This document shows, piece by piece, positions 18,324-50,418 of a stretch of 57,812 bases of DNA. A program made the position numbers and the translations under genes. This stretch comes from an uncultured virus (IMG/VR IMGVR_UViG_3300028048_003162). Lineage: Duplodnaviria > Heunggongvirae > Uroviricota > Caudoviricetes. Each line of letters opens with the position of its first letter. Position 1 is the stretch's first letter. The stretch lies in IMG/VR virus record IMGVR_UViG_3300028048_003162; one strand, 5' to 3'. Under the pieces are notes generated by a model. That model ran no database searches. It had not been told where the DNA came from and worked only from the letters and a program-made list of their open reading frames with translations.

Positions 18324-18776
18324 ATGGGACAGAAAAAGCTTAACGTTCAGAATAAGAAAGCATATCATGACTATTTTGTAGAGGACAAATTAGAGTGTGG
18401 TATTGCACTTAAGGGAAATGAGGTAAAGAGCATAGTAAGTGGTAAGGCATCCATTAAAGAGGCATGGGTAGACATTGTGAATGGTGAACTTGTGTTGAAA
18501 CAGATGCATGTCACACCTTGGGATACATCAAATGGTTTCGATGTGGACGAGTTGAGAGCAAGAAAGCTGCTTGCTCATAAGAAAGAGATCAGAGAATTTG
18601 ATCAGAAAGTACAGAGAGATGGATACACACTCATTCCTTTAAGTGTGTACAGCAGTCATGGAAAGATCAAAGTCAGTGTTGGTTTGTGTAAGGGCAAGCA
18701 CGATTATGACAAGAGAAATTCTCTGAAAGATAAGCAGGTCAAAAGAGACATTGCAAGAGAATTGAAAAACAGATAG
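18324..18776 (+). CDS. smpB: SsrA-binding protein SmpB
   Basis: NKKAYHDYF, ECGIALKGNEVKS, RKLLAHKKEI, GYTLIPLSVY, KGKHDYDKR. Confidence 0.97.
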   Translation: MGQKKLNVQNKKAYHDYFVEDKLECGIALKGNEVKSIVSGKASIKEAWVDIVNGELVLKQMHVTPWDTSNGFDVDELRARKLLAHKKEIREFDQKVQRDGYTLIPLSVYSSHGKIKVSVGLCKGKHDYDKRNSLKDKQVKRDIARELKNR

Positions 18777-19310: not shown

Positions 19311-20144
19311 ATGAAAGAACTTCAGAAATTGACTGATATGCTCGGGCTAGAAATAATAGTACACTCTGTTGTGTACATATGTATTGCATTTGTACTTGTC
19401 AAACTTGTCAATAAGGCATTTGATAAAGATAAGGTTGCAAATATGATACATATGAAATTCATTAAAAATGCACTTGTGACAATTATATGGGTCATTGCAG
19501 GTTGTACAGTAGCAGGGCAATTTAGCGGAGTCAGTAAGTTAGCAAGTACAATACTTGCTGGTTCAGGTATATTAGCAGCTATAATTGGTTTAGCTGCACA
19601 GGAATCCTTTTCAAATATATTCAGTGGGCTGTTTATTTCTATATTCAAACCATTCAATATTGGTGATAGAATCAGTATTGTTGGGGATAGTACAGCAGGG
19701 TTTGTTGAGGATATAACTCTTAGACATACAATAATTAGGACTTACACTAATGTGAGTGTGATTATACCTAATTCAATTATTGCATCTTCTAAGATTGAGA
19801 ATAGTACATATACTAAAGGGTGTTCATACCCGATAGAAGTGGATATTGCATATGAGGATAAAGAAAAGCGTCATAGAGCAATGGAGATCATGGAAGAAGT
19901 TGTGATCAATCATCCTAAGTTTTATGATATGCGGAGTGATGAGGCTAAGGTACTTGGTGTTAAACCTGCTCAAGCATTATGTACTGAGCTTGGAGATAGT
20001 GGAATACATATGAAAATTCTTATGTGGACAGAGGAGTTTAGTGATAATGCAGAGGCTTGTAGTGAATGTCGTATGAAAATACTTGATAGACTTGAGGAAG
20101 AAGGAATAGAGATTCCATATAACAAGATTGAACTTATTAAGTAG
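19311..20144 (+). CDS. mscS: MscS-family mechanosensitive channel
   Basis: Three TM segments; GLAAQESFSNIFSG, KPFNIGDRI, VEDITLRHT, IIPNS, GIEIPY. Confidence 0.92.
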   Translation: MKELQKLTDMLGLEIIVHSVVYICIAFVLVKLVNKAFDKDKVANMIHMKFIKNALVTIIWVIAGCTVAGQFSGVSKLASTILAGSGILAAIIGLAAQESFSNIFSGLFISIFKPFNIGDRISIVGDSTAGFVEDITLRHTIIRTYTNVSVIIPNSIIASSKIENSTYTKGCSYPIEVDIAYEDKEKRHRAMEIMEEVVINHPKFYDMRSDEAKVLGVKPAQALCTELGDSGIHMKILMWTEEFSDNAEACSECRMKILDRLEEEGIEIPYNKIELIK

Positions 20145-20197
20145 CAGTTAGATATAATAAGGGTATTTATTATTAAATTAAAAAGGATGGTATAAAA

Positions 20198-22558
20198 ATG
20201 GCGAATAACAATGGAAGACATATTGGTGGACTTAGTTTTATGGGAGCAAGCAAGGGTGCAAACGATGCATTACTTGAGGCAGCTAACCTTTGCATTGATA
20301 ATTGCTGTGAAGGGCTTGAGCCAGTTGAATTCTTCATTGCTTTATTAGATAAGACAAAGTTAGGTAAAAAGATCTTGAAAGATTCAGGAAAGACAAAGGA
20401 TGATTTCCTGTTTGCATTTGAAGGTTTAGCAGCAGCTGGTGAGTACGGATATATGGACTATGGCAATGATGGCAGTAAGGTAGATCCACAGAGATTACTG
20501 ACACCTACAATTATGAGTTTCATTGCTCCATTAGTACTTCAGTCTCAAATGTCTGGTCAAGGCAAGGGTTTTACTTGTGATGATGCAATGGATGGTTTCT
20601 TTGAGACAGATGAAGAAACAGGTAAGGTTGAGGAAATCGATGAAGGCATCGAAAAACTGCTTGACATGGTTGGTTACAGCTATGAAAAAGTGGCTGCAAT
20701 GGTAAATAAGGAGTTCACCATTCCTGCTGAATTAAAACCATATGTTACATATCTGAATACATCAACTAAAGTGACAGATGGCACCTTTACAAATATGGGT
20801 GACATTGTAAAACAGATGATTGAGATCCTTGGAAGAAAGAGAAAGAGTAATCCTTGTTTAGTAGGATACCCTGGAGTTGGTAAGACAACAGGTGTTTATG
20901 CATATACTCAGTATGTTGTAGACAATAAAATTGATCAGCATATCTGTGCTTTGAATATGGGTACCCTTGTAGCAAATACAAAGTACAGGGGAGAATTTGA
21001 AGAGCGCATGCAGAAAATTATCAAGTGGGCTTCAAATAGTAACATTGTACTGTTTATGGACGAGATTCATACATTAACATCATGCAATTCAGGCAGTAAT
21101 TCAGCATCTGCATCTGATATGATTAAAGGAGCATTAGCAGATGGGGAGATCAAGGTAATTGGTGCAACTACACCAGTTGAGTTTCATAAGAGCATTGAGA
21201 AAGATACAGCTCTTAAGAGAAGATTTCAGAGGGTAGAGTTTAAGGAGCCTTCAGTAGAGGAGGCAATCACTATTGTTAAGGCAGCAGTACCTGAATATGC
21301 AGGATTTCATCATGTAGGAATTAGCAATGGCATTGCTGAGCAGGTGGTTAAGCTTTCAGTTAAGTATATTAAGTCAGAGTATTTACCTGATAAAGCATTG
21401 ACAATCTTGGATCAGGCAGCTAGTCATGCTAAGCAGGATAAAAGTAAGTATGCAGTAACTGAAGATGATGTGCTTTATGTAATCAGCAAGAATACAGGGG
21501 TTGCAGTTGAGAAATTAAACAGTGACCAGAGTAAGAGACTGATTAGACTTGAGGGAATTTTGAAAAAGAACATTATTGGTCAGGACACAGCAGTTGAAGT
21601 TGTGAGCAAGGCAGTAAGAAGAGGAAAGGTTGGCATTAGAGAGAATGCTAAACCGATCGCTTCATTTATGTTTGTTGGACCTACAGGAGTAGGTAAGACA
21701 GAGATCTGTAAGGTTTTAAGTAATGAACTTGGTTTAGGACGGAATAGCTTTATCAAGATTGATATGTCAGAGTATTCAACAGAGACATCAGTGACAAAGT
21801 TGATTGGTTCTGATCCTGGTTACGTAGGATATGAAAGTGGTGGCATCTTAACAGAGAAAGTTAAGCAGAATCCTTACAGTATTGTGCTTCTTGATGAAAT
21901 TGAGAAAGCGCATCCTAAGGTGTTTAGCATGTTGTTACAGTTGTTAGACGAGGGAAAAATGACAGATAATACAGGTGTAGAGGTTGACTTTACAAACTGT
22001 ATTGTGGTTATGACATCAAATGCTGGTTATGGAGCATCTGGTTGCAAGCCTTTAGGGTTTGGGGCAGCATCTGAAGAAAAAGATCCTGCAAGAGAAGCAG
22101 AGGACAGAGCACGTGAGGCATTAAAACTGACATTTGCTCCTGAGTTCCTTAACAGAATCGACAACATTGTTGTGTTTAACAGCTTAACAAAAGAGAATTG
22201 CAAGAGCATTAGTAAATTGTTACTGGACAAGCTGGCAAAGAGAATGTCAGAGGATAAAAATATGGTTCTGACATTCGATAATTCAGTAGCGACAGCAGTA
22301 AATGAAGCTGGATACAGTGAGAAATATGGTGCTCGTAATATTAAGAGAGCAATTCAGGACATTGTTGAAGATGGAATTACAGATGCAATTCTTGATGGTA
22401 CCTTGTATGATGGATGCATTGCATCAATTAAATACAATAAGACAAGTAAGAAAATCAAGGTTACAGATAATACACCTGAAACAGTAAAAGAGACTGGAAC
22501 AGCATCAGGAAATAAAGGTGTAAGCAGTGAAGATATTTTAGTACCTATTCTTCAGTAA
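20198..22558 (+). CDS. Clp/Hsp100 ATPase with two AAA+ domains, ClpP-docking LGF loop, no middle domain
   Basis: GYPGVGKT/LFMDEIH; GPTGVGKTE/LLDEIEKAHP; YLPDKA; PLGFG; PEFLNRID; YGARNIKR. Confidence 0.92.
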   Translation: MANNNGRHIGGLSFMGASKGANDALLEAANLCIDNCCEGLEPVEFFIALLDKTKLGKKILKDSGKTKDDFLFAFEGLAAAGEYGYMDYGNDGSKVDPQRLLTPTIMSFIAPLVLQSQMSGQGKGFTCDDAMDGFFETDEETGKVEEIDEGIEKLLDMVGYSYEKVAAMVNKEFTIPAELKPYVTYLNTSTKVTDGTFTNMGDIVKQMIEILGRKRKSNPCLVGYPGVGKTTGVYAYTQYVVDNKIDQHICALNMGTLVANTKYRGEFEERMQKIIKWASNSNIVLFMDEIHTLTSCNSGSNSASASDMIKGALADGEIKVIGATTPVEFHKSIEKDTALKRRFQRVEFKEPSVEEAITIVKAAVPEYAGFHHVGISNGIAEQVVKLSVKYIKSEYLPDKALTILDQAASHAKQDKSKYAVTEDDVLYVISKNTGVAVEKLNSDQSKRLIRLEGILKKNIIGQDTAVEVVSKAVRRGKVGIRENAKPIASFMFVGPTGVGKTEICKVLSNELGLGRNSFIKIDMSEYSTETSVTKLIGSDPGYVGYESGGILTEKVKQNPYSIVLLDEIEKAHPKVFSMLLQLLDEGKMTDNTGVEVDFTNCIVVMTSNAGYGASGCKPLGFGAASEEKDPAREAEDRAREALKLTFAPEFLNRIDNIVVFNSLTKENCKSISKLLLDKLAKRMSEDKNMVLTFDNSVATAVNEAGYSEKYGARNIKRAIQDIVEDGITDAILDGTLYDGCIASIKYNKTSKKIKVTDNTPETVKETGTASGNKGVSSEDILVPILQ

Positions 22559-22600
22559 AACAGACAGGGCAGATATAGAGGATTGGCACTAGTAAAGAGG

Positions 22601-22642
22601 ATTGGCTATGTAGGTGTAACTGACTTACATAGCCAATAAAAA
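22601..22642. terminator. Hairpin, possible terminator (U-tract on the minus strand)
   Basis: ATTGGCTATGTA/TACATAGCCAAT stem followed by AAAAA. Confidence 0.55.
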
Positions 22643-22680
22643 TTAGTACATAGGAATTAAGAAATGGAGGACATGGTAAA

Positions 22681-23181
22681 TTGGCAAAGATTTTAGTTTG
22701 TGGCTCATACAAAATTGTTGGGATACCTGCAGAGGTAGAGAGATGGCTTGAGGAATATACAAAGCAAGGTCATGAGTTTATTGTTGGAGGCAGTAGTGCT
22801 TTAGATAATGCATTGCATCGAACATTATCTGGAGTAGGGGCAGCTGATAAGACAACAGTGTATTGTATGGGATATGCAAGGTATAATAAGTTTAACTTCA
22901 AGGTAAGGGAGTTTGATACAGTATATGATGCAGAAAAGAAACAGGCAATAATTACAGAGCATGGTAATTCAGAGACATTACCATATGTAATTGATGATGT
23001 TAACATTGAGGCTGATGTACAGAACAATAGAGAGTGGTATGAATACTTGAACAATAAGATGATTAACGATTGTGATGCAGCTATCGTCCTGTATGATGGA
23101 GAGAGCAAGACACTTAAAAACATGATGCAGAAGATTAACATTAAGAATAAGCCTTGTTATACTTTTACTTTACAGGTGTAA
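22681..23181 (+). CDS. SLOG/YspA-like Rossmannoid protein
   Basis: ILVCGS, FIVGG..ALD, MINDCDAAIVLYDGESK...KNKP. Confidence 0.55.
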   Translation: MAKILVCGSYKIVGIPAEVERWLEEYTKQGHEFIVGGSSALDNALHRTLSGVGAADKTTVYCMGYARYNKFNFKVREFDTVYDAEKKQAIITEHGNSETLPYVIDDVNIEADVQNNREWYEYLNNKMINDCDAAIVLYDGESKTLKNMMQKINIKNKPCYTFTLQV

Positions 23182-23184
23182 GAA

Positions 23185-24078
23185 ATGAGAATTGGCAATG
23201 GAGTTGTAGGAGCTGCACAGCTTTATGAGTCTATGCAGTTGCTAAAGACAGAGTTTGACAATATAATATTAGTAAACCCATTGGAACAGAGCGAGATAGG
23301 CGTTACTGAATATGGTTTACAGGATTTGAATAGGTGTTGCACTGAAACATGTCCTTTGGCAAATGATAAAGTTGGTTGCATTTGCAAAAGTTGTTTATCA
23401 GCAAAGGAGAACAGATGTAGATACATTTATGATAAAACTAATGCATATCTTGTAATTGCTAAACCCATTAAAATGAGGTACAAGGAATATGCACTGGTGA
23501 TGATTATGAGACTTAATCCTGCATTTCAATTTGGTGGTAATACAGAGAGTGAAGCGATTGAGAGCATCACTAAACTAAGCAGTAGCTTGGTACTTGATCC
23601 TCTGACAAAGATTTTCAACAGGCAATACCTTATGGAAAATGTACAATACATGCTAGAGTTTTGTCTAAAACAGAATAAACCAATGTGTTTAGCATGTATT
23701 GACATTGATAACTTTAAGAGGTTTAATGATACATATGGGCATGAGTTTGGAGACAAAGTATTAAAGAGTGTTGCAGACAACATGGTTAAATGTACAACTA
23801 GTTTAGAGGATGCATACAACATCAGAATTGGTGGTGATGAGTTTGTCATTGTTGGTGTGAATGTTGACAAACAAAGGTTTAAGGCAGTCATGAACAAATT
23901 GTGCATTACAGTTGATAATACTAAACTTCCATATGGTAAAGAGATGGTAAGCATTAAGATAAGTGTAGGAGTCAGTGAGTTATTATCCGATAGACTTTCA
24001 AGTTATAAAGAGCTTTATAATAAAGCAGATGGGCAGTTGTATAAGGCTAAAGAGGCAGGTAAGGGTTGTGTAAGATAG
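23185..24078 (+). CDS. Diguanylate cyclase (GGDEF) with Cys-rich N-terminal region
   Basis: DPLTKIFNR, DIDNFKRFNDTYGHEFGD, RIGGDEF, ADGQLYKAKEAGK. Confidence 0.93.
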   Translation: MRIGNGVVGAAQLYESMQLLKTEFDNIILVNPLEQSEIGVTEYGLQDLNRCCTETCPLANDKVGCICKSCLSAKENRCRYIYDKTNAYLVIAKPIKMRYKEYALVMIMRLNPAFQFGGNTESEAIESITKLSSSLVLDPLTKIFNRQYLMENVQYMLEFCLKQNKPMCLACIDIDNFKRFNDTYGHEFGDKVLKSVADNMVKCTTSLEDAYNIRIGGDEFVIVGVNVDKQRFKAVMNKLCITVDNTKLPYGKEMVSIKISVGVSELLSDRLSSYKELYNKADGQLYKAKEAGKGCVR

Positions 24079-24079
24079 C

Positions 24080-24685
24080 ATGGGAAATGAAAAATGCAAG
24101 CATAATGTGATATTTATTGACATAGATGGAGTGTTAAATTCACTTGAGTTTCATAACAGAGACAGGTCAAAGAAAAAGCTATTTGACAGGGAGTGTGTTG
24201 AGAGACTTGCAGAAATAGTAAGGGAGTTAAATTGTTTAGTGGTTCTTGCATCAACTTGGATAGTACTTAACACTAAAGAAAAAGTGGAGAGATGCACTAG
24301 ACAAGAAGATGGTGTGAAAAGTTCAAGTGCTATGTACTTTAAGTTATTGAATGAACTTCAGTCTGTAGGAATTGGGCTTTATGATCAGATAGAGGATGAG
24401 CATATAAGACCAATAGGAATCAATGACTGGTTGATAGAAAACATTGAGATTGTAAAGAATTACGTTATAATAGATGATGATTACAGATTCAATGATTATG
24501 CTAGCATAGGGAATGGCTTAGAGAGTCATTTAGTTTCAACAGAGTATTTTTGTGATGTGCCTGGTGGAATACAGAATGAGCATATGGTTAAAATAAGGGG
24601 CATACTGAATAATTGGGAATTACATTTGGACTTAGAGGCTTGGCAAAAGCGGTTTAAGAGTTTGCAAAGAAAAATAGACAAGTAA
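24080..24685 (+). CDS. HAD domain protein (Swiss-Army-knife RNA-repair-like)
   Basis: FIDIDGVLNS, VVLASTW, INDWL, YVIIDDD. Confidence 0.8.
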   Translation: MGNEKCKHNVIFIDIDGVLNSLEFHNRDRSKKKLFDRECVERLAEIVRELNCLVVLASTWIVLNTKEKVERCTRQEDGVKSSSAMYFKLLNELQSVGIGLYDQIEDEHIRPIGINDWLIENIEIVKNYVIIDDDYRFNDYASIGNGLESHLVSTEYFCDVPGGIQNEHMVKIRGILNNWELHLDLEAWQKRFKSLQRKIDK

Positions 24686-24749
24686 ACAACAAGATAGTAA
24701 GTAGAGCAGTGTAAAAGTAAAAGTCAAACCATAGGAAGAGGGAAATGGC

Positions 24750-25553
24750 ATGATATATTTAGTTCAGAAAGAAAATAATGAACTTACATTAGATGAACAT
24801 ATCATAGTAGATTTACTTAAACAGCATAAATATCAGTTTGAGTGGCAACTAAATAGTTTAGCTGGTATTGAGAAAATGAGTCAAGAGCAGTTGGAGTGTG
24901 TAGTACCCATTGGAACAATTCAGTTTGTCACTAAAGTACTGAACATTGGACATGGGTTTATTAAGGAAAATCCTGTTGAAATACCTAAGTATTTAAGAAC
25001 AGACAGATACTTAAAACGTGATTACAAGATAGTTAAGGGGAGTGAACTACCTAGGACAGGATATTACTTTATTAAAAACGCAAGTACACTAAAGGACTTT
25101 AGTTACTTGGGGCAGTTAGACTATTTCTTGTTTGATGAGATGTTTTACAATAAAGGACAAGAAGATGCAGCTAAATGTAATGATTACACATTGAAGATAT
25201 GCAATGATGACTTATTTGTAGTAAGTTCGAACTTCAATCCTCAAGCAGAATACAGGGTATATGTGGTAGATAACAAGATTATTAACATTGGAAATTATGA
25301 TGGAAATATTTGTGAATTTCCACCTGACTTTCAGCTAATAAAAGATGCAGTGAGCGAAATAAGAGATCATGAGGAATGGTTAAAGAGTTATACATTGGAT
25401 ATCATGGTCAATATGACTGGTACAGCTATTATTGAGATTCATAACCTTACGAGTTGTGGTTTATATGCAACTGTGTTTGGTTCAGAGTTACTTTATGGCT
25501 ATAAGCAGGGCATTGATTATTTGTTAAATGACAATCATTTATTGGAGGTATAA
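24750..25553 (+). CDS. ATP-grasp domain protein (DUF4343/R2K-like)
   Basis: PIGTIQFV, YLKR, FIK, EYRVYV, YTLDI, IIEIH..TSCGLY. Confidence 0.75.
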   Translation: MIYLVQKENNELTLDEHIIVDLLKQHKYQFEWQLNSLAGIEKMSQEQLECVVPIGTIQFVTKVLNIGHGFIKENPVEIPKYLRTDRYLKRDYKIVKGSELPRTGYYFIKNASTLKDFSYLGQLDYFLFDEMFYNKGQEDAAKCNDYTLKICNDDLFVVSSNFNPQAEYRVYVVDNKIINIGNYDGNICEFPPDFQLIKDAVSEIRDHEEWLKSYTLDIMVNMTGTAIIEIHNLTSCGLYATVFGSELLYGYKQGIDYLLNDNHLLEV

Positions 25554-25557
25554 GGAA

Positions 25558-26367
25558 ATGAGACCTAGTGAGGTATTAAGTAAGGTCATTGATAATGATT
25601 GGTTACTTGAAGAAATGGATAGGGTACAGGAGTCAGGCAAGCATGAGTTTTCAGTAAGTGAACTTTCAACACTGGTTTGGCAGAGCTTCAAGAGCATCAA
25701 AGAGAAGAAAGAAGCATTAAGAGATTTGGAAAAGACATTGGATAAGTCTGATGTAAGTAGAACAATGATACCTTTATTTAAGGCATTGGATGAAGCAGAG
25801 GCAGCTATTAAGGGAAATAAAAGTAATGTTTGTTTGCTGTTTGACATTTTAGATAATGGATGTACAGAGGAAGACGATGAAGACAGCATAAAAACATATG
25901 TTAGAGCAGCTAAGGATATTGATACATTTAGGAAAGTGGTAAGTAAGTACACTGAAGTTTCAGGAAGCTTAAGATGTGTAGATTTAACTACATCTGATGT
26001 ATTGTATGATATTTTTGTTAATGAAGATGGGCAGGTAATTGGCATTTCAAGTGATGAATTGGATGCACTTGAAATTGTAAATACAAGTATTGACTGGTCA
26101 ATTATATTCAATGTAGGAGACACAATCAAGTTTGTAGATAATAAAGATGATACATTTGTGGTTTGTGATGCAAGCAATAAGGCAGGAAAGAACAGACTCT
26201 ATGTAATAGATGATGGGTACATAAATAAGCATTTATCAACCGAAGAATTAAATAAACAGATTGAAGCAGCACTATCAGATGGAGAGAACAGTGAGTGGTC
26301 ATTATACTCAAGAATATTAGGGGAGAGCATGTTAATAGGAAAAGTTACATCTTTTGTAAAAGAGTAA
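25558..26367 (+). CDS. Hypothetical protein
   Basis: Long ORF with GGAGG/AAGGA RBS before ATG 25558. Confidence 0.7.
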   Translation: MRPSEVLSKVIDNDWLLEEMDRVQESGKHEFSVSELSTLVWQSFKSIKEKKEALRDLEKTLDKSDVSRTMIPLFKALDEAEAAIKGNKSNVCLLFDILDNGCTEEDDEDSIKTYVRAAKDIDTFRKVVSKYTEVSGSLRCVDLTTSDVLYDIFVNEDGQVIGISSDELDALEIVNTSIDWSIIFNVGDTIKFVDNKDDTFVVCDASNKAGKNRLYVIDDGYINKHLSTEELNKQIEAALSDGENSEWSLYSRILGESMLIGKVTSFVKE

Positions 26368-26464
26368 ACATTAAATTTGACAGAATGGTGTTTAGATGTT
26401 AAAATAGTATTTGTAAGTGAGAGAGATATTAAAGAAAAGTTAAAAAAATAAATGAAATTGTTTA

Positions 26465-26493
26465 TTGACTTTTCTGGAAGGAAATGGTATAAT
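26465..26493 (+). promoter_or_regulatory. Sigma-A type promoter for the tRNA-Gln/ncRNA/tmRNA unit
   Basis: TTGACT-N17-TATAAT with extended TG. Confidence 0.75.
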
Positions 26494-26570
26494 AAATAAT
26501 GTTGAGAGAGATAAGTGATAGACATTAAGAAATGTAAGGAGCATATCTAATCAACATAATGTTAAGGTTT

Positions 26571-26643
26571 TGGGCATTCGCCAAGTGGTAAGGCACGGGA
26601 TTTTGATTCCCGCATTACGTTGGTTCGAATCCGACATGCCCAG
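26571..26643 (+). tRNA. tRNA-Gln (TTG)
   Basis: TGGGCAT/ATGCCCA acceptor; CGGGA-TT-TTG-AT-TCCCG anticodon arm; TTCGAAT T-loop. Confidence 0.93.
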
Positions 26644-26711
26644 TTCCGGGGAGGGATAAACCGTTAAGACAACCTGCCTGGTATGGAACAAAGTGTTCCA
26701 TTTAAAATTTA

Positions 26712-27400
26712 TATGTTGCATTTTGGAAGTGATTGAGCAGGATAACGCGAGCTTTTAGCATGAACGTTGTTTGTAGCAAGGCAAATGTACATAGTACGTT
26801 TAAGAGATCACCGACTGCATTGATTGGCGAGTTGAGGATGCAGGGCTTGACAAGGGTAGTCAAGTCGAATATGAATGGATGCGGCGTAGGAGGCGGTTGG
26901 CAATTCCGAGTTGAGGATATGCTTAGGATGCGCCTCAGCCGGTCCGTGAGATGAACTCGTGTGAACCCGCATGGGCGTGATGTAGTGACCAAGGGAGATG
27001 ACATTGTTGCAGGATAACAGTGTTAGCTACATCATGTAATTAAAGCTTGGCGCAGCTATGATGCGATAAGTACATAGAGGGCAACATGAGTGACTTAGCA
27101 TTAAGTCATTTAGCATTGTTGATGTGTCGTATGTGGAGAGGTAAGGCGACAAAGTTAATATCCAATACGCGTTAAGGGTATTCGCGACTACATTGATCTT
27201 CAACTGAGGCAGAGAGGTTTGTTGGGATTGGTTCACACAATTATGCAGGTGGGCACCATTTCGGATCATTGGTGTCATTGAAGGATAAGCCGGCATCGCA
27301 GAGGCAGGCAGGCAGTAGATGAAAGGTGCGAACTTAAGGTAGTGATCAGGTGAGTCACTAGTGTAGGTTGGAGTAATCATTGTAGATTTAATGAAATGTT
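26712..27400 (+). ncRNA. Large ornate structured ncRNA (ROOL/GOLLD-class candidate)
   Basis: ~690 nt, GC-richer than the flanks, no credible ORF, more than 12 helices including a 5'/3' closing stem, located directly after a tRNA. Confidence 0.72.
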
Positions 27401-27414
27401 TGGAGGAAAGTGAA

Positions 27415-27546
27415 ATGAACAAAGAAGCAAAGATTGCATTAGCAGAGAACAGACTCGCTAATCTTCAGGGAAGTCCTAAGAACATCAAGTGTCCTGGAGT
27501 AGCACGTAAGGTAGCACGTCAGTTGCGTAACCTTAAGAAGGACTAA
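27415..27546 (+). CDS. 43-aa basic small protein (not in ORF track)
   Basis: GGAGG RBS at 27402; MNKEAKIALAENRLANLQGSPKNIKCPGVARKVARQLRNLKKD. Confidence 0.7.
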   Translation: MNKEAKIALAENRLANLQGSPKNIKCPGVARKVARQLRNLKKD

Positions 27547-27673
27547 TACATAGAACTTGTAGGTAACAATTATTAGAAGTTAGACCTGGTTGAGAGGTTG
27601 AACTACTCATTCATTACTTCTAGTGACAAGGAAAACCTTGGGTTAAACCTTCAAAAATAAAACAATAAAACAT

Positions 27674-28040
27674 GGGCTAGCTCTGGTTTCGACAGGGGCT
27701 TGAAAGCAAAATACGACAGCAAGGGTGGATTCCCTTAACAGCCAAACAAAAATAAATGCTGACGAAAAATTAGCAATGGTTGCCTAGTTTATTCTGGGTT
27801 TAACCCTCTTAGCTGATAGAAGCCATAGGTATTCAGTAAGAGTTAAGAACGATTGGCATTGTTGTTGATTCACAGATTCTCAGAACGCATTGACGGCATG
27901 AAAGAGTGAGATGTCTTATGTTAAATGCTTTAGGTAGCATAGTCAGTAAGAGGAAGGCTTTGACAAATACCGAGAGATTGCTGTAGTGATGTATTTGTAA
28001 GTACAGTTTTTGGATAGGGGTTCGACTCCCCTCTAGTCCA
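27674..28040 (+). ncRNA. ssrA: tmRNA; tag peptide (A)ADEKLAMVA
   Basis: GGGCTAG/CTAGTCC-A acceptor with G3-U70; GGTTTCGAC 5' motif; GGGGTTCGACTCCCC T arm; tag ORF 27758-27787 after ATAAAT. Confidence 0.93.
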
Positions 28041-28102
28041 CTGGGCACCATTCAGAGGAATGGCTGTCCTGATTTCCCAATTTTCACATTAAACTCAATC
28101 TT

Positions 28103-28151
28103 AAGGAAAAGGAGGTGCACATTATTGAAATGTGTGCCTCCTTTTTCTTTT
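28103..28151 (+). terminator. Intrinsic terminator after tmRNA
   Basis: AAAAGGAGGTGCACAT/ATGTGTGCCTCCTTTT + T tract. Confidence 0.85.
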
Positions 28152-28222
28152 ATAGGGAATATACATAATCATTAACATTGATATTACTTAAATAAAATTT
28201 TATTTTTATTTAGGAGATAGAT

Positions 28223-31200
28223 ATGTTTACATGGTTATTGTATTTTGTGCTTATACTGATGGCAGTGTGTGCATTCTTTGTAGTGTTTAATCTACTTGGT
28301 TTGTTTATATGTCATAAGTTAAAAGATAAGGCAGCAAAAGCTGGTGGGGAAGCAGCTAAAAGATATGTAAGTCACATGAATCCCTTGTTTAAGTTACTTA
28401 TGAAAAGTAAGAAAATACAAGAGGGAACAGATGCAGCTGCAGAGAAACAAGTAAATAAGCAGTGTAAAAGAGCAAGTAGGATATTCTTTTGCGGGGCTGC
28501 TATATCATTAGCATTGTTAATTGCACTTGGTGTATTGGCAGAGACATTGTATGAAATGAATTTGTCAATGACGTCAACTACATCAGTAATTAGTATACTT
28601 ACAAGGAATAAGGATTGTACCTGCTATGTAAAATGTACAAATGATGCAGATGATGATCATAAGTCAACATATGAATTATTGTTTGGACCTACTGAATTTG
28701 CTACATTTGCAGGTCATATGAAATTGAATCCTCAGGAACAAGATGAGTGGAAAGCATTATATCCTGATGTGAAAGACGGTGAGACAAGAGATTATGACAA
28801 GTTAGACGGTAAAAAGCAGAATGAGTTTATTGCTGAACATCTAAACGATAAAATGGTTGATGATTATAAGACCATACTACAGGACTATCAGAACTTTATG
28901 AAGTCTGCTGATGGCAAAGACAGAATGAAAATGTCTAATGATGAATTGATGGCAGACTTAAAGAAAATGTGTAAAGACTATAAAGTCAATGGTAGGAATC
29001 CTAATTGTAAGGTTTGTAAGTCAGCTAATACTTCTTCCTTACAGCGTAAATGTAATGGAATGAACAAATGGGTTAAGGGTTGGACATGGCAAGAAATTGC
29101 AGATGCAAATGGAAATAATAAAGATGATAAAAATAAGGGTTCAGTTGAGGTTCCTGCATTAGGTCATGCATCTGGAAAATATGCAGTTACATTAGGAGAT
29201 GGGAATAGCTATTATTGGTATCATCAGACACAGGAGGCTTGTAAGTATAACGTAGTTAAATATGGACAGCGCTATGGATTTGTAAACCTTGGAGGTCTTG
29301 GTCCAGCATATAGCAGAGGTTGTAGTTCATATGCAACTGCAATGGCAATAAGTAATGTACTTGGAGAAGAGGTCACTCCTTTTGATGTTCAAGAAAAACT
29401 TGAGGGTGTTAAGCCATCTAAAAGTTCAAATGGCACAATCACTTACTATGGAAAGTCACCTATAGATTTCTGTAGTACCATTGGAGTAACATTTAATGGG
29501 GTAGGAAAAAAGGCAATGGTAAAGAAGGCATTAGATGTTTATGGGAATGATGGACTTCAAGCAGCTTACTTAGGGCATAGTCAGAAGGAATTTGATAAAT
29601 ACTTGGATAAAGGAGCACTAATCGTAGTTTCTATAATAAATGCTGGTGGAAGTTACGATAGTATGCCTTGGTACAGAGGCGGTGGACACTATATAGTAAT
29701 TAGAAAGAAAGAAAATGATAAATACTATCATCTAAACAGCTGTGTCATTGGCAGTCTAAGCAGTCATTATTCGGGTAGTGGCACTGATGAAAAAGCTAAA
29801 TCACTAATGAATATAGGAATTTCATGGAATACATTATCAAGTCACTTCAAAGCAGAGGGGGCAGTAGCATTTTGGTCAGACAACAAAGTCATGATAGATG
29901 GAGATAGTAGCACTGGAACAAATACGTTTAGCAATTATGAATACAATAAAGACGTACTAAAAGCGGTTATTAAAGCATTTGAAAAAATAGATGGAAAAAG
30001 TTATAAGGATTTAGCAGACATCAAGAAAAAGAGTACCTGGACTTACTCAAAAGTAATAGTGACCACTGTGTTATTTACAGAGTTATCTAAAAAGTATGGA
30101 ATAGAGGCATTATGTGGTATAGGGGGCAACATAGCAGTAGAAGGAGCATCAGGTTTGATCGAGGATTTTGGGTGTGGTAAAGCATTTAGTCTAGATCATA
30201 AGTTTGTTAAGAGTGATGCAGATGTGAATAAAGCTTTAGCAGAGGCAAAGAGGCATGCACTTAGGGGTAGTAATGTAGTGTACACTGGTCCTATGGGTGA
30301 TTTAATATATGGAAAGTGGACATCATTTTCAGAACAGCCTGGATATAGCTTATGCCTAGGTTATAAGGAAACCGATTATTCATTAGAGGCAATGTCCCTA
30401 TCAGATGCACGCTGTTATTTAACAACAGATAAAAAAAGTAAATTCTACATTCAAAAATTCTGGGATTCGATTAACGGAATGAAGGGCAATAATAATGTGA
30501 TAAGCTGCTCAGATCATTGGATGAAGGCCTATGAACGATGTGTAAACAGAGATGGAACATACCAAAAAGTTTCCGAGAGAAGAAGTGCATCTAATTATTT
30601 GTATAAATACCTTAAGGATGTTCATGTGTCACCTACAATAGGTAAAAACAACAGTTTAAAACCTGGTTCAAGCAACAATAAAAACAATAAAAACAAAGAT
30701 AAAGGAAAAACAACCATTACTAGTAATGGTTGGGAAACAACTTATACTGATTTAGGTCATAAAGTTTATAAACAGAAGTCTGGTGATGGAACATACGACG
30801 CAAAGGGAGCAATTAAGAACATATTAAAATATACAAAAGACACTGATTCTTCTAAGATAGGTTCAGAGGTAGTAATATATGGTACAAGGTTTATAGGAAA
30901 CCGTTACGTCTGGGGTGGAGCTAGCCTTACAAATGGATGTGACTGTTCAGGCTTTATTATGTCATTATATGCTCATTTTGGAGTAAATTTACCTCACTCC
31001 TCAGGTGGCATGAGAAACGTAGGTGTAAACGTAGCAGAGAATGACATTCAACCTGGAGACATAGTTTGTTACCATAATCACGTAGCCTTATACATTGGTG
31101 GAGGTAAGATACTGCACGCATCAAGTGCTGATTCAGGTATAAAAATAGGAAATAAGTATAACTATAGGACTATACTGGCAATTCGTAGACCTACAGGAGT

Positions 31201-31231
31201 TAAGAGTAGAGGCAACTTATATAAGAAATAA
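28223..31231 (+). CDS. Membrane-anchored multi-domain peptidoglycan hydrolase (C39-like peptidase, lysozyme-like, NlpC/P60)
   Basis: Two TM helices; GCSSYATAMA...GGGHYIVI; LCGIGGNIAVE...KAYER; YVWGG...DCSGF...HVALYIGGGKILHAS. Confidence 0.85.
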   Translation: MFTWLLYFVLILMAVCAFFVVFNLLGLFICHKLKDKAAKAGGEAAKRYVSHMNPLFKLLMKSKKIQEGTDAAAEKQVNKQCKRASRIFFCGAAISLALLIALGVLAETLYEMNLSMTSTTSVISILTRNKDCTCYVKCTNDADDDHKSTYELLFGPTEFATFAGHMKLNPQEQDEWKALYPDVKDGETRDYDKLDGKKQNEFIAEHLNDKMVDDYKTILQDYQNFMKSADGKDRMKMSNDELMADLKKMCKDYKVNGRNPNCKVCKSANTSSLQRKCNGMNKWVKGWTWQEIADANGNNKDDKNKGSVEVPALGHASGKYAVTLGDGNSYYWYHQTQEACKYNVVKYGQRYGFVNLGGLGPAYSRGCSSYATAMAISNVLGEEVTPFDVQEKLEGVKPSKSSNGTITYYGKSPIDFCSTIGVTFNGVGKKAMVKKALDVYGNDGLQAAYLGHSQKEFDKYLDKGALIVVSIINAGGSYDSMPWYRGGGHYIVIRKKENDKYYHLNSCVIGSLSSHYSGSGTDEKAKSLMNIGISWNTLSSHFKAEGAVAFWSDNKVMIDGDSSTGTNTFSNYEYNKDVLKAVIKAFEKIDGKSYKDLADIKKKSTWTYSKVIVTTVLFTELSKKYGIEALCGIGGNIAVEGASGLIEDFGCGKAFSLDHKFVKSDADVNKALAEAKRHALRGSNVVYTGPMGDLIYGKWTSFSEQPGYSLCLGYKETDYSLEAMSLSDARCYLTTDKKSKFYIQKFWDSINGMKGNNNVISCSDHWMKAYERCVNRDGTYQKVSERRSASNYLYKYLKDVHVSPTIGKNNSLKPGSSNNKNNKNKDKGKTTITSNGWETTYTDLGHKVYKQKSGDGTYDAKGAIKNILKYTKDTDSSKIGSEVVIYGTRFIGNRYVWGGASLTNGCDCSGFIMSLYAHFGVNLPHSSGGMRNVGVNVAENDIQPGDIVCYHNHVALYIGGGKILHASSADSGIKIGNKYNYRTILAIRRPTGVKSRGNLYKK

Positions 31232-31257
31232 CATTCAAAAAGAAAGGATAGACCATT

Positions 31258-32061
31258 ATGAAGAATAAAAAACCATTGATTTTAACATTATTGTGCATAG
31301 TAGCAGTTGCACTAATCATCATTGCAGTTTTAGTAACACCAATGTTAAATAAAACTAGCAATGCAAATAAGAAGTATCAGCATGGAGATTCTTTTAGTAG
31401 ACTTACAGCTAATAATGAGGTTTATGAAGATAGTACAGGTGGGAAGTTTAGTGACAACACCTCAAATTCCTCAAATACAAACTCAAATTCATCAGATGCA
31501 TCGACTTCAAACAATTCAACACAGGAGACACAGAGTGAGGACACTCAAGATGAACAAAATAAGAAGTTAATGGATGATAAGGACACTGATGTAGTAGGAT
31601 ATACAGACTCAAATGGAAAGATGCATGTTAATAAAGATAAGATTAACAAGATAAATGAAGAGGTTGCATCTGAATTGGCAACAGAGACAGAAACAGAGGA
31701 TGAGGGATATGGAAAATCAACCAGTTCAGATGTAGTGGCAGACAAGTTAAAAGTAAGTAAAGACGTTGATAATATCAAGGTAATGGTTTATAGGATAAAC
31801 CAATTAGCATTGGATAATAACTACAAGACAGTAAAGGTTTGGGATAAGCCATCAAAGTCAGATATAAGAGATGCTAAAGAAACTAATGGATCATTAGTTT
31901 ATGTAGTTGAACTTGACTATGATTTTTACTGGATCACCTATTATTATGATAGTAACGAGGCAACTTCAGATAGAGACTTTGATGGTTCATTGGCTAGTCT
32001 TTATATTGCAGATACAGAAGAGGATGATAATGATGTGGACACAGAGGTTGTAGTGTGGTAA
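31258..32061 (+). CDS. Single-pass membrane protein with Ser/Asn-rich linker
   Basis: N-terminal TM helix; low-complexity linker; acidic C-terminus. Confidence 0.7.
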   Translation: MKNKKPLILTLLCIVAVALIIIAVLVTPMLNKTSNANKKYQHGDSFSRLTANNEVYEDSTGGKFSDNTSNSSNTNSNSSDASTSNNSTQETQSEDTQDEQNKKLMDDKDTDVVGYTDSNGKMHVNKDKINKINEEVASELATETETEDEGYGKSTSSDVVADKLKVSKDVDNIKVMVYRINQLALDNNYKTVKVWDKPSKSDIRDAKETNGSLVYVVELDYDFYWITYYYDSNEATSDRDFDGSLASLYIADTEEDDNDVDTEVVVW

Positions 32062-32092
32062 ACATAGTATGATAAGAAAGGGCAGTAGGAAA

Positions 32093-32739
32093 ATGAAATT
32101 TAGACAACTTGGTTTAATTTTATTAGCAGTATTAAGTTTAACATCTTGTGGAAGTTCAGATATAGACTCTACAGAAAATTCAGCGGAGCGTACAACTTTT
32201 CAAGCAGATTCATACTCGATTAGAAAAGAGAATGAGAATGAAGAGTTGAAGTCACAGGAGGATGAGAAGTCAGACAGTAATGATACAGATGGTACAGACT
32301 ATGAATACAAAGTGGCACAGGTAAATTAAAGAACAGCACTAATACAAAAGATTATGTCATTAAGAAAAATGATATAGTATCATATGATGATAGAACATTT
32401 CATGAGTTGTATAAGTGTTTATCACGAATTAAAGCACCATACAGTGTAAATGAAATGGCAAACTTCATAACAAAAACTTATGCATATGATGATAAAGATA
32501 TATACACAGAATGTACGAAGATGTCAGATCTTACTGAAGATTATGACATAGGATTTGATGGAGATCTGGCAGGGATTGATAAGTATGAGGAACTTGAGGA
32601 TCAATATGGTGCAGTAGAATGGAAATTGGATGTCTTTAGATATGGTAGAGAGGACACATTAACACTATATGGAAACAGTAAATATATTTTAGCAGCAGGT
32701 TATAATAATGATATAATCATTGATATGGATAAACAATAG
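32093..32739 (+). pseudogene. Lipoprotein interrupted by a -1 frameshift near 32305
   Basis: Lipobox LTSC; downstream frame is open from ~32305 into ORF 32407; one extra A in GAATA joins them (YEIQSGTGKLKN). Confidence 0.6.
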
Positions 32740-35416: not shown

Positions 35417-35887
35417 ATGAAGGCAAGAGATGTGTTATTAGGAGTAGTAGTTGGTGCAGGAGTTGCAGTAGTTGGTGCTAAAGTTGCAACAAAGAAATAC
35501 ATGGATACACATGGTTTTTCTGATGTAGCACAGAGAATGGCAGCTGATGGCAAGAGAATCGCAGAGGATAGCAAGGATCTTGGTAGAGTGATGGCAGAGA
35601 GTGCTAAAGAGGCAGCTGGTAAGGCAAAGGCTCATGGAGAGAGATTCGTAAGTGATGCAAAGGAAAAGATCAATGAGGCAGTTGCTAAAAAGAGCAGTGA
35701 CATAGGTGAAGCTGACGAAGATGCATTTGAGGATGAGGAATTCAAGGAAAGTGCAGAGGCAGAGAAAGAATACGGCTTCGACGATGATTATGACGAAGAG
35801 GAGTCAGAAGAGGCTACAGTGGAAAACGGTGACAGCAGCGAAGATGCAGGGGAAAAGTCATCAGATGATGAGGACCTGCTAGATTAG
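35417..35887 (+). CDS. YtxH-like membrane-anchored helical protein with acidic tail
   Basis: LLGVVVGAGVAVVG N-terminus, Ala/Lys-rich helix, D/E tail; AGGAGG RBS. Confidence 0.55.
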   Translation: MKARDVLLGVVVGAGVAVVGAKVATKKYMDTHGFSDVAQRMAADGKRIAEDSKDLGRVMAESAKEAAGKAKAHGERFVSDAKEKINEAVAKKSSDIGEADEDAFEDEEFKESAEAEKEYGFDDDYDEEESEEATVENGDSSEDAGEKSSDDEDLLD

Positions 35888-35911
35888 TTTATAAGAGAGG
35901 ACAGTTAAAGA

Positions 35912-42438: not shown

Positions 42439-43398
42439 TTGGAAATGAGCAAGTATAGTCCAGAATTTTTGACAAGTATGCATAGGGAGCCTATGACACT
42501 TAATTTTATAAAGCAGGCAATTAAAGATAGATCTATGCTGGAGGGTTTAGTAATTGCATGCAGCGAATCACATGAATTGACTATTGATATTGGACGTGGG
42601 ATTGTAGGAAAGGTTGCATTTGAGGAGGTTGAGTACCATTATGATGGTTCACCTATCAAAGAAGTTTCTGCAAGGTCACGTGTAGGAAAATACATTAAGT
42701 TTATTGCCTTGGGTATTGAGAAAGTGGGAGATAGCTATGTTGTAGAGTGTTCAAGACGTGAGGCACAAAAGGAGTGTCATGAGAATTTTATTTCTAAGCT
42801 TGAGCCTGGAGATATAGTACCTGCTAGATTATTGAGGATTGAAGATTATGGAATCTTCTGTGACATTGGTTGCGGTATTGTGGCCTTATTACCTACAAAT
42901 AATATTAGTGTCACACATATTGTAAATCCTAAGGTAATATTAAGGGATGTGAAGAGACTTTCAGTAGTAATTCAGAGTATTGATGAAAATTACAAGATAC
43001 AGTTAACACACAAGGAATTGCTTGGAACTTGGGAAGAGAACATTGCAAAGTTCCATGAGGATGAAATTGTGCATGGTGCAGTGATCTCTGTTGAAGATTA
43101 TGGTGTCTTTGTTAGATTAAGTCAAAACCTGTCTGGTTTATCAGAGTTACCTGATGATATTCAGGTAGAGCCTGGTAATATGGTGGCAGTAAAGATTAAT
43201 CACATTTCACCTAAGAATATGAAGGTTAAGCTTCTGATTATGGATAGGACCATGGAAGATGAACCTGAATCATTAAAATTTGAATACAAGAAAACAAGTG
43301 GACATATAGATGAATGGCATTACTCCACACCAACAGCAAAGAAACAGATTGATTCTGTGTTTAGACCTGTTGATAATGGAGGAAAGCAGGAAGGTTAG
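42439..43398 (+). CDS. Multi-S1-domain RNA-binding protein (ribosomal S1-like)
   Basis: IEDYGIFCDIGCGIVALLP; VEDYGVFVRLSQNLSGL; a third degenerate S1 domain at the N-terminus. Confidence 0.85.
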   Translation: MEMSKYSPEFLTSMHREPMTLNFIKQAIKDRSMLEGLVIACSESHELTIDIGRGIVGKVAFEEVEYHYDGSPIKEVSARSRVGKYIKFIALGIEKVGDSYVVECSRREAQKECHENFISKLEPGDIVPARLLRIEDYGIFCDIGCGIVALLPTNNISVTHIVNPKVILRDVKRLSVVIQSIDENYKIQLTHKELLGTWEENIAKFHEDEIVHGAVISVEDYGVFVRLSQNLSGLSELPDDIQVEPGNMVAVKINHISPKNMKVKLLIMDRTMEDEPESLKFEYKKTSGHIDEWHYSTPTAKKQIDSVFRPVDNGGKQEG

Positions 43399-44243: not shown

Positions 44244-45029
44244 ATGAGTAACACAGAGGTTGGTTTGGGTAATGACAATGGAATTGAACAGCTTCAGCAT
44301 ATGATTGATGAAGCTAATCATATTGTATTCTTTGGTGGTGCAGGAACTTCAACAGATAGCGGCTTACCAGATTTTAGAGGGGCAAATGGTTTATACAAAG
44401 GAGCAAATTCACCTGAAGAGATACTTAGTCATGGATACTATGTTAAGCATACAAAAGACTTCTTTGACTTTTACAGAGAGAATATGATCTTTGATGGAAA
44501 AGCAAAACCTACAGAAATTCATGAGAAGCTTGTTGTTCTTGAGAAAAAGCATAAGTTAGATGCAATAATCACTCAGAATATAGATAGTTTACATCAGATG
44601 GCAGGTAGTAAGAATGTGATTGAACTTCATGGGACATCAGCAACTAACACATGTCGTAGATGTAAAGCTAAATATACAGCTAAATGGATGTTGGGTACAA
44701 AGAATATACCTAGATGCACACAGCTAGTTGATGGACCTGGAGGACAAAAGGTTGCATGTGGTGGAATCGTTAAGCCTGATATAGTATTGTATGGGGAAAA
44801 ACTTCCTGTCAGGGCTTTGAATAAGGCATACATGGCAGTTAAGGGTGCAGATCTTATGATTGTAGCTGGTACATCATTGGTGGTTTATCCTGCAGCAGGG
44901 TTAGTAAGCGAGCTTAGTGAAGACTGTAAGCTGATCGTTATAAATAATGACAAGACAGGGGTGGATGAGGCTGCTGATCTGGTAATTCATGGAAATATAC
45001 TCAATGTGTTTAAGCAGTTAGAGGTTTAA
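44244..45029 (+). CDS. cobB: Sir2/CobB NAD-dependent deacylase
   Basis: GAGTSTDSGLPDFRG, TQNIDSLHQMAG, ELHG, KPDIVLYGE, GTSLVVYPAA. Confidence 0.93.
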   Translation: MSNTEVGLGNDNGIEQLQHMIDEANHIVFFGGAGTSTDSGLPDFRGANGLYKGANSPEEILSHGYYVKHTKDFFDFYRENMIFDGKAKPTEIHEKLVVLEKKHKLDAIITQNIDSLHQMAGSKNVIELHGTSATNTCRRCKAKYTAKWMLGTKNIPRCTQLVDGPGGQKVACGGIVKPDIVLYGEKLPVRALNKAYMAVKGADLMIVAGTSLVVYPAAGLVSELSEDCKLIVINNDKTGVDEAADLVIHGNILNVFKQLEV

Positions 45030-50110: not shown

Positions 50111-50194
50111 TGGTAGGTATGCAAATGGCTGAAGCAAGCGGTCTGTAAAACCGTGACGTAAGATACAGTGTGGGTTCAAATCCCACCCTACCAA
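50111..50194 (+). tRNA. tRNA-Tyr (GTA)
   Basis: TGGTAGG/CCTACCA; GCGGT-CT-GTA-AA-ACCGT; long variable arm; GTGGG-TTCAAAT-CCCAC. Confidence 0.88.
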
Positions 50195-50208
50195 CTTTAT
50201 AAAAATTT

Positions 50209-50297
50209 GCGTCGGTGAGCAGAATTGGCATCGCAGCGGTATGTAAAATCATGGTTGGGGAGACCTGACATTTCTGGTTCAAGTTCAGAGCGGCGCA
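50209..50297 (+). pseudogene. Degenerate tRNA (Tyr-like GTA)
   Basis: GCGTCG/CGGCGC acceptor and TTCAAGT T-loop, but mismatched anticodon stem GCGGT/ATCAT and A32. Confidence 0.6.
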
Positions 50298-50305
50298 CTT
50301 AATAA

Positions 50306-50376: not shown

Positions 50377-50418
50377 TTCTAAATATTAGATTACAAATAA
50401 ATTTAAGGAGTAGGACAT

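Follow-up and report, generated by a model that had tools for sequence, protein, structure and literature searches.

A probable ~717-nt structured non-coding RNA between tRNA-Gln and tmRNA of a huge gut phage

The locus between tRNA-Gln and tmRNA

We analysed a stretch of 57,812 nucleotides of DNA (hereafter the window) from an uncultured virus of the Caudoviricetes, IMG/VR record IMGVR_UViG_3300028048_003162. An earlier note, made from the letters of this DNA, had singled out positions 26712-27400 as a densely structured non-coding RNA placed between tRNA-Gln and tmRNA, and this putative RNA (hereafter the large RNA) is the subject of the present work. The setting was borne out by ARAGORN and Rfam. 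On the + strand, two tandem promoter-like sites are followed by tRNA-Gln, the large RNA, a small open reading frame (ORF) and tmRNA, the last RNA gene of the unit. The same gene order (tRNA-Gln, 1017 nt, tmRNA) is found in L001, a human-gut contig of 464,735 bp, which is the sole diverged homologue that we obtained. The features of the locus are the following:

26377..26405, + strand: upstream promoter-like site of the sigma-70 type, TTGACA-17-TAAAAT, TG-extended, 11/12 consensus positions (L001 6841-6869)
26465..26493, + strand: second promoter-like site, TTGACT-17-TATAAT, TG-extended, 11/12 consensus positions (L001 6928-6956)
26570..26644, + strand: tRNA-Gln, anticodon UUG (ARAGORN; Rfam tRNA, 56.3 bits), 71/75 bases the same in L001
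26654..27370, + strand: predicted large non-coding RNA, whole, ~717 nt; RNA contigs in 4/4 runs, no Rfam match, minimum free energy (MFE) z -2.50
27415..27546, + strand: small basic ORF of 43 aa, taken from the ORF list, with GGAGG 8 nt upstream
27674..28043, + strand: phage tmRNA with tag ADEKLAMVA (Rfam tmRNA, 86.6 bits over the full model; ARAGORN), 350/370 bases the same in L001

Both promoter-like sites are consensus matches. The second is the promoter that had been placed upstream of the RNA at 26465, and it was indeed found there and is kept in L001. The first base of the RNA contigs described below lies 10 nt from the end of tRNA-Gln. No terminator-like site was found in 26200-28400, and the 43-aa ORF belongs to the same transcription unit as the large RNA, the 3′ end of which is uncertain, from 27370 to about 27400.

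The flagged stretch stands out by its composition. Its GC content is 0.454 compared to 0.355 for the whole window, its CpG observed/expected ratio is 0.92 compared to 0.25, and a 200-nt scan gave it as the biggest CpG-rich block of the window, the remaining blocks being tRNA arrays and a coding stretch at ~35600-35900. Over the whole window CpG is very strongly depleted except in the RNA genes, and the coding strand has a steadily positive GC skew. Over 26645-27673, each + strand frame carries 25-29 stops and all three stop kinds occur in every frame, which excludes an alternative genetic code. The longest ORFs of the RNA stretch (131 and 100 aa on the - strand, 73 aa on the + strand) gave no Pfam match below E 0.06 and their frames are not retained in L001. 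Exact look-up of ORF translations from the stretch found 0/10 in a collection of 15 billion proteins. A protein-coding gene reading therefore fails, since no frame is retained between relatives and no family is matched, and the description of the stretch as GC-richer, CpG-containing and non-coding holds.

Transcription was examined with assembled contigs of four cattle-gut metatranscriptome runs from four studies (X3, X8, X19 and X20), mapped over 24500-29000. Contigs covering the large RNA were present in 4/4 runs. In X3, a 1441-nt contig lying wholly inside 26605-28031 had a mean word depth of 4208, compared to 21, 12 and 9 for contigs on flanking genes; in X8, a contig at 26087-27882 had a depth of 1032, compared to 8 downstream. 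The step from the RNA contig to the flanking genes thus amounts to 130- to 460-fold in these two runs, which cover the flanks, and absent contigs on flanking protein genes in X19 and X20 were not counted as evidence. Since uniform DNA carry-over would not yield steps of this size, the region is transcribed far above its neighbours. Separate contigs were obtained from X20 for the RNA (26654-27370, 717 nt, depth 35), for part of the small ORF (27417-27613, depth 2.5) and for tmRNA (depth 48), and X19 gave a contig at 26654-27660 (depth 157) together with a tmRNA contig (depth 127). Depths on the large RNA therefore resemble those on tmRNA. The common contig start at 26654 in X19 and X20, from two studies, gives a weak hint of the 5′ end of the RNA. 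The RNA marked at 26712-27400 is real, with about 26654-27370 as better coordinates.

Folding and variation of the large RNA

Hairpins were counted when they carried at least 8 contiguous pairs, at most one G-U pair and a loop of 3-8 nt, with 300 dinucleotide shuffles as controls. Five such hairpins are present on the + strand of 26654-27370, compared to 0.25 +/- 0.48 in the shuffles, 0/300 of which reached five. A single one was counted on the - strand, a number reached by 41/300 shuffles, because the other four each contain a G-U pair. The hairpin excess is limited to the + strand, which is therefore taken as the sense strand. The L001 allele of the RNA holds three hairpins (0.40 +/- 0.60 in shuffles, 0/300 reaching three). 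The folding-energy z-score was -1.44 for 26712-27400, -2.50 for 26654-27370 and -3.33 for the L001 allele, with 0/20 shuffles folding as well in either of the last two cases. The helix sequences that the earlier note had named are present, and its claim of dense structure agrees with the hairpin counts. The closing stem it had proposed (26728/27374) was not sustained: 4/8 pairs are kept in L001, and the stem extends beyond 27370, the 3′ end of the X20 RNA contig.

Comparison with L001 by blastn gave alignments over window positions 19487-26710 and 27184-32385, at 89.5% and 89.7% identity, and nothing in between. The borders of this central cassette are sharp (26710/26711 and 27183/27184). Global alignment of the two cassettes gave 276/473 identical positions (58%) compared to 260 +/- 5.6 (55%) in shuffles, and the only long words common to both, found in the same order, are one of 16 nt at 26985 and one of 12 nt at 27045. 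Two otherwise alike phages carry deeply different central two-thirds of the RNA and therefore provide a natural distant comparison. As predicted from the two sequences, the RNA opens with a conserved 5′ leader, continues into a central cassette of many hairpins and closes with a 3′ domain that is better conserved. The cassette appears near-wholly replaced between phages that are 89.5% identical elsewhere, yet invariant islands, predicted to be mostly unpaired, are retained in it. The parts of the RNA are as follows:

26646..26701, + strand: conserved 5′ leader with two hairpins (26646-26681 and 26683-26701), 56/66 leader bases the same in L001
26711..27183, + strand: hypervariable central cassette with most of the hairpins, 473 nt (455 nt in L001)
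26975..27037, + strand: best-supported hairpin, with outer stem 26975-26986/27026-27037, inner stem 26999-27009/27015-27025 and a 12-nt internal loop
26985..27000, + strand: invariant island GTGACCAAGGGAGATG, mostly the internal loop of the preceding hairpin, sole 16-mer common to both cassettes
27045..27056, + strand: invariant island GCTTGGCGCAGC, 12-mer common to both alleles, order kept
27184..27228, + strand: conserved block opening the 3′ domain, candidate 3′ strand of a long-range helix with 26806-26843
27248..27279, + strand: 3′-domain hairpin, GGCACCA/TGGTGTC with an extension
27281..27330, + strand: variable-length linker, 18 bases longer in L001, with a 9-nt tandem duplication behind 27313 in X19
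27329..27371, + strand: 3′-terminal hairpin, AACTTA..TAGTGAT/GTCACTA..TAGGTT

Both leader hairpins occur in both alleles, with one change from A-U to G-U. The second is followed by a U-rich run (26683-26711; L001 7144-7172), which has a terminator-like score in L001 and not in the window, and contigs from the RNA libraries read through it. Attenuation between tRNA-Gln and the large RNA is a possible role for this segment.

Columns of the hairpin at 26975-27037 could be mapped without gaps because its flanks are invariant. Of its 23 window pairs, 5 are broken in L001 and 18 stay canonical: 6 with the same bases, 1 with a substitution in one strand and 11 with substitutions in both strands; when the partner strand was slid by 1-5 positions as a control, 4-6/12 and 1-8/11 positions could pair. 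RNAalifold on a MAFFT alignment of 26970-27060 gave 17 pairs, 7 of them compensated and none broken, and the hairpin itself accounts for 13 pairs (7 compensated, 0 broken). A further comparison is offered by the X19 variant, a 1016-nt contig, in which three substitutions relative to the window all fall within this hairpin. Substitutions 27007 U>C and 27017 A>G affect partners and turn U-A into C-G, and 26986 U>C, facing G27026, turns U-G into C-G. In the 3′ domain, 38/41 MFE pairs are canonical in L001, pairing being kept in 7/8 changed pairs, and RNAalifold gave 31 pairs (4 compensated, 8 with one-side changes, 0 broken). None of the 10 pairs of the hairpin at 27248-27279 is lost in L001: 5 have the same bases, 4 are kept with a change in one partner and 1 with changes in both. 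None is lost either among the 15 pairs of the hairpin at 27329-27371, of which 12 have the same bases, 2 have changed in one partner and 1 in both. At least three predicted hairpins thus retain their pairing through substitutions. Compensatory changes occur in helices that had been listed from the window sequence, namely GTGATGTAG/CTACATCAT enclosing TGACATTGTT/AACAGTGTTA, GGCACCA/TGGTGTC and AACTTA..TAGTGAT/GTCACTA..TAGGTT.

We also aligned the two cassettes with a structure-aware, LocARNA-like aligner written for this analysis, using as controls 22 alignments in which the variable parts of L001 were dinucleotide-shuffled. The score was 31,221, compared to a shuffle mean of 24,112 (sd 3,269, maximum 29,662), or ~2.2 sd, and to 27,432 for a reversed control.

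Pairing between the cassette and the 3′ domain can also be drawn. There are two copies of the word AGUUGAGGAU, at 26830 and 26909, both complementary to the stretch at 27196-27205. Between the window and L001, the block at 27184-27228 shows no differences except TC>CT at 27197-27198 and a gap of 2 nt, and the L001 cassette segment GGUUGAGAGU bears a GA>AG change that matches TC>CT; a second L001 segment pairs with an overlapping strand. In both alleles, the same 3′ nucleotides (27197-27229) are able to pair with the 5′ part of the cassette. Enforcing the long-range helix costs 1.3 kcal/mol in the window, and the helix is present in the L001 MFE structure. As for the islands, they are mutually complementary, CCAAG (26989-26993) with CTTGG of the next island, as read from the sequence and with no covariation. 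The GGCGCA of the island at 27045-27056 is complementary to the shared TGCGCC at 26927-26932, with which it may pair. Since the islands do not vary, they neither support nor refute such pairings.

Exact internal repeats are found in the RNA, GCAGGATAAC and CGAGTTGAGGAT twice each, at 26737-26746, 27009-27018, 26828-26839 and 26907-26918; neither is kept as such in L001. GGATAA occurs in 4 copies in the window allele compared to 0.2 expected, and is enriched only in this allele, not in L001.

Family searches, relatives and phage context

At gathering score, cmscan of the whole window returned only tRNA and tmRNA. We further searched stretches of 753-1801 bases of either allele against all 4227 families of Rfam 15 with permissive filters, at E<=10. 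The window allele of the large RNA gave 0 matches. The L001 allele gave only snoZ40 (E 9.2) and SECIS_3 (E 4.7), chance-level matches to unrelated families. In neither allele was there a match at this threshold to RNase P, group I/II introns, OLE, raiA, HEARO, 6S, SRP, rRNA fragments or T-box, nor to the covariance models of ROOL and GOLLD, the large phage RNAs among which the earlier note had sought a divergent relative. There was no full-length match to a known class in either allele. Since both profiles are in Rfam and neither matched, the sole testable criterion of ROOL/GOLLD membership gave a negative result. By Rfam models, then, the RNA is not recognisable as ROOL or GOLLD, a question of membership on which the supplementary ROOL alignment of PMC5737381 could also bear. 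The segment ATGAAAGGTGCG, which the earlier note had likened to ROOL, lies in a stretch that differs in L001, and no ROOL match accompanies it. Of the two possibilities then raised, a divergent member of these families or a new class, the former found no Rfam match and the latter is favoured by the evidence. A sponge of the CsrB/RsmZ type was rejected because GGA is not enriched, with 15 copies in the window allele and 18 in L001 compared to 14.6 +/- 2.7 and 13.9 +/- 2.7 in shuffles (z 0.15 and 1.5).

Relatives were sought in several collections. Ten clusters related to the upstream gene were found, at 68-85% identity, all from Logan or ENA assemblies. Blastn of 26645-27673 gave no match in INPHARED (50,697 phage records). 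In IMG/VR, queries with the 279-aa and 786-aa neighbour proteins and with an 11-row alignment gave no relative, and five RNA patterns retrieved 5, 15, 3, 0 and 0 stretches, which blastn, nhmmer and alignment showed to be pattern-only chance matches. Among contigs of GTDB species genomes, the protein alignment gave 378 pattern-matching stretches, none encoding a relative, and the RNA pattern gave 24 stretches, none related. A match to the RNA pattern in a ruminant-gut metagenome-assembled genome (L034) was discarded, as it falls within a protein-coding gene. In blastn searches of 400 genomes of one class (one further genome being unscored), 9 had matches of 23-47 nt with E 0.0015-0.0085 per genome, judged to be chance. 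No similar RNA was found in tmRNA-flanking regions of two phage records (L022 and L023), and our literature search turned up no account of huge or rumen phages with a large RNA placed between tRNA-Gln and tmRNA.

We read the window as part of a huge phage (>450 kb), contigs bearing relatives of a neighbouring gene being 457,589 and 464,735 bp long. All long ORFs of the window are on the + strand. Among their products are an NlpC/P60 protein of phage tail type and a ClpB-like ATPase, and many are without any family. A host among gut Firmicutes is suggested by the TG-extended promoter-like sites (TTGACA/TATAAT) and by ribosome-binding sites of sequence GGAGG, and sequencing runs of bovine gut DNA and RNA from 11 studies contain the stretch. 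Genes for SmpB, IF3, an S1-domain protein, 10 tRNAs and a full-length tmRNA are present in the window. The translation-related genes for SmpB, tmRNA, IF3 and the S1-domain protein lie at 18324-18776, 27674-28043, 7172-7681 and 42439-43398, respectively; SmpB (Pfam E 4e-53) and the full-length tmRNA form a complete trans-translation pair, and the tmRNA tag is ADEKLAMVA in the window and ADKKVLMAA in L001. Nine more tRNA genes (Tyr, Trp, Ala, Asp, His, Glu x2, Phe, Ile) form an array at 50111-52774, ~23 kb downstream, and a cyclic-phosphate-processing receiver domain (cREC_REC, E 5e-20) and a metallophosphatase are encoded near this array (53821-55020). RNA-repair-type domains, HAD_SAK_2 (E 5e-18) and R2K ATP-grasp (E 1e-11), are encoded at 24080-25553, ~1.1-2.6 kb upstream of the large RNA. 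Host-physiology genes unusual in a phage are present at 19311-24078 (an MscS-type mechanosensitive channel, the ClpB-like ATPase of 786 aa and a GGDEF diguanylate cyclase, E 6.5e-36), and Sir2-family, NUDIX with NrtR winged-helix, isochorismatase-family and GmrSD N-terminal-domain proteins are encoded at 44244-45029 and 55584-57812. This last set is NAD- and restriction-related and may play a counter-defence role.

The 43-aa ORF downstream of the large RNA had no match in Pfam, NCBIfam or PDB, on which ground a ribosomal-protein-like partner was dropped, and its only relatives are 3 protein clusters, all 90-98% identical. Compared to L001, it carries 4 amino-acid changes and 1 silent change, and a bovine variant adds K>R at 27539; this replacement:silent ratio is odd for a protein under purifying selection. 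The 127 nt from the small ORF to tmRNA (27547-27673) are near-invariant between the two phages, and the ORF together with this spacer has 256/273 bases the same as L001, above the 89.5% background. Within the spacer, GGGTTAAACC (27640-27649) is perfectly complementary to 27797-27806 of the tmRNA. The spacer may be a tmRNA precursor element.

Interpretation and comparison with GOLLD and ROOL

Taken together, we favour the reading that the locus, part of a huge phage of gut Firmicutes, specifies a single non-coding RNA of ~717 nt that is stable, highly structured and of a class not in Rfam. We give this reading, mechanism excluded, a probability of about 0.6. That the stretch specifies a functional structured RNA is very probable, and that it is one RNA of a class absent from Rfam is likely. 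Several observations weigh on the other side. The basis of comparison is two alleles and one near-identical variant. The 3′ domain, with 170/217 positions identical to L001, is no more conserved than the 89.5% genome background. In a sequence-only alignment of the cassettes, 62/142 MFE pairs are canonical compared to 48-56 in slid controls, a weak signal. The structure-aware alignment matched 106 arcs with 56 both-sided changes, compared to 101 +/- 15 and 60 +/- 11 in shuffles, and these counts carry no weight because they are the same as in shuffles. The long-range duplex is no stabler than those of shuffled cassettes, 71/500 doing as well for the window and 137/500 for L001. Duplex energy was therefore rejected as support, and the long-range helix between 26806-26843 and the 27196-27205 region is tentative, a candidate only. 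Contigs give neither strand nor true ends, and expression is poorly measured by their depth; a contig spanning several genes does not prove a single transcript, and the 3′ end at 27370 was observed in just 1/4 runs, X20.

Other explanations of the locus were weighed on the same evidence. The large RNA is co-linear with tRNA-Gln, the ORF and tmRNA, all behind the same promoter-like sites, which would suit a cis-acting part of the tRNA-Gln/tmRNA precursor, that is, a structured spacer or leader guiding processing, nuclease protection or translation of the small ORF. So would the finding of no terminator-like site in the region, the contig that in 3/4 RNA runs continues from the RNA into the ORF or tmRNA, and the fast turnover of the central 473 nt, which suits low sequence constraint. 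We nevertheless hold such a role to be unlikely: the X20 contig of the RNA is set apart from that of the ORF and has a depth near that of tmRNA, which fits a stable product of its own, and the invariant 16- and 12-nt islands in a saturated cassette, together with stems carrying 11 both-sided changes, indicate constraint beyond that of a spacer. To our knowledge, spacers of 700 nt are not usual in tRNA operons. Several shorter structured RNAs could also lie side by side, for instance one each for leader, cassette and 3′ domain. The single 717-nt contig of X20, which has one depth and covers exactly 26654-27370, makes this improbable, as do contigs spanning the region in 4/4 runs, the negative search for promoter- and terminator-like sites inside the RNA of the window allele, and the ability of 27197-27229 to pair with the 5′ part of the cassette in both alleles, the only two substitutions of the block being matched in the partner. 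What speaks for separate RNAs is that the supported helices are mostly local hairpins, that the cassette is an independently exchangeable module with sharp borders, that the long-range helices tying the parts together lack statistical support and that contigs cannot prove a single transcript.

A very divergent member of ROOL or GOLLD, beyond the reach of narrow Rfam models, would share the setting described for these RNAs in published work (phage, beside tRNAs, abundant, several hundred nt, rumen or gut) as well as the pattern of a less conserved 5′ and a conserved 3′ part reported there for GOLLD. We think this very unlikely, as two deeply different alleles searched with permissive filters gave no ROOL or GOLLD match at E<=10 and the segment likened to ROOL is not conserved in L001. 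In Infernal searches, true family members normally score far above threshold. It is just as hard to see the stretch as non-functional, a decayed-gene remnant or a recombination hotspot transcribed only through its strongly expressed RNA-gene neighbours. The cassette is near-saturated with changes (58% identity compared to 55% in shuffles) and relatives were not found outside this phage lineage in the databases searched, as would be expected of such a remnant. Decay, however, would spare neither stems through 11 both-sided changes nor invariant islands. Moreover, the excess of perfect hairpins is specific to the + strand (20-fold in the window, about 8-fold in L001), the cassettes are nearly equal in length (473 and 455 nt), and CpG stands at 0.92 of expectation in a genome at 0.25, like tRNA genes.

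If the locus does encode one stable structured RNA, as we favour, a course of events may be proposed. The primary transcript would be cut at the 3′ end of tRNA-Gln by host tRNA-processing enzymes, and the folded RNA would then accumulate as a stable species. By analogy with GOLLD and ROOL, it could act as a scaffold or an RNA-only assembly; this part is doubtful. Such an assembly might bind a component of translation (tRNA, ribosome or rescue factors) during the phage takeover of host translation, with the invariant islands as putative contact or tertiary-pairing sites and the exchangeable cassette as a possible peripheral or specificity module.

Somewhat speculatively, the RNA might represent a third family of ‘ornate’ giant phage RNA beside GOLLD and ROOL, restricted to huge phages infecting gut Firmicutes, built from a conserved frame (5′ leader and 3′ domain) and a swappable module of ~470 nt, and present in the rumen at tmRNA-like levels. 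In that event, the cassette would be a specificity module for a variable host target (tRNA set, ribosome or RNA-sensing defence), swapped like a tail-fibre cassette, and the islands a constant catalytic or assembly core. Large structured RNAs of unassigned role are rare, and each has proved informative. The present RNA is also tractable. Its contig depth is high in public rumen RNA libraries, at least 10 related protein clusters imply more alleles in public assemblies, and two natural alleles differ in the whole central domain and have the frame and the invariant islands in common.

GOLLD and ROOL, profiles of which are included in Rfam, are both reported to form RNA-only cages (a homo-oligomeric nanocage), a recent finding. 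For the RNA described here, the two-sequence comparison supports only local hairpins, and the candidate island-to-island pairings are invariant. According to published accounts, ROOL was first found in cow rumen metagenomes, occurs in phages and prophages near tRNAs, averages 581 nt in length (659 nt in one example) and is very abundant in one bacterium. The present RNA resembles it by its occurrence in bovine gut runs of 11 studies at high contig depth and by its placement in a phage, with tRNA-Gln 10 nt upstream and tmRNA and 9 further tRNAs in the window. It differs from ROOL in having no match to the Rfam ROOL model and in that the 3′ segment likened to ROOL is unconserved in L001.

In GOLLD, by published accounts, the 3′ region is universally conserved and the 5′ region less so, and many members exceed 800 nt; GOLLD is phage- or prophage-encoded, often by or around tRNA genes, and several hundred nt long. 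The large RNA, with tRNA-Gln 10 nt upstream, is likewise phage-encoded beside a tRNA gene and several hundred nt long, and its 5′ two-thirds are near-wholly different between two phages with an alignable 3′ third (n=2). At ~717 nt it is shorter than those many GOLLD members, and its 3′ part is only as conserved as the 89.5% genome background. The setting differs from that of GOLLD and ROOL, being a phage of >450 kb with its own tmRNA, SmpB, IF3 and tRNAs. Here the RNA forms one unit with tmRNA, a link that the accounts of GOLLD consulted do not mention, and the case bears on whether such RNAs generally associate with translation RNAs.

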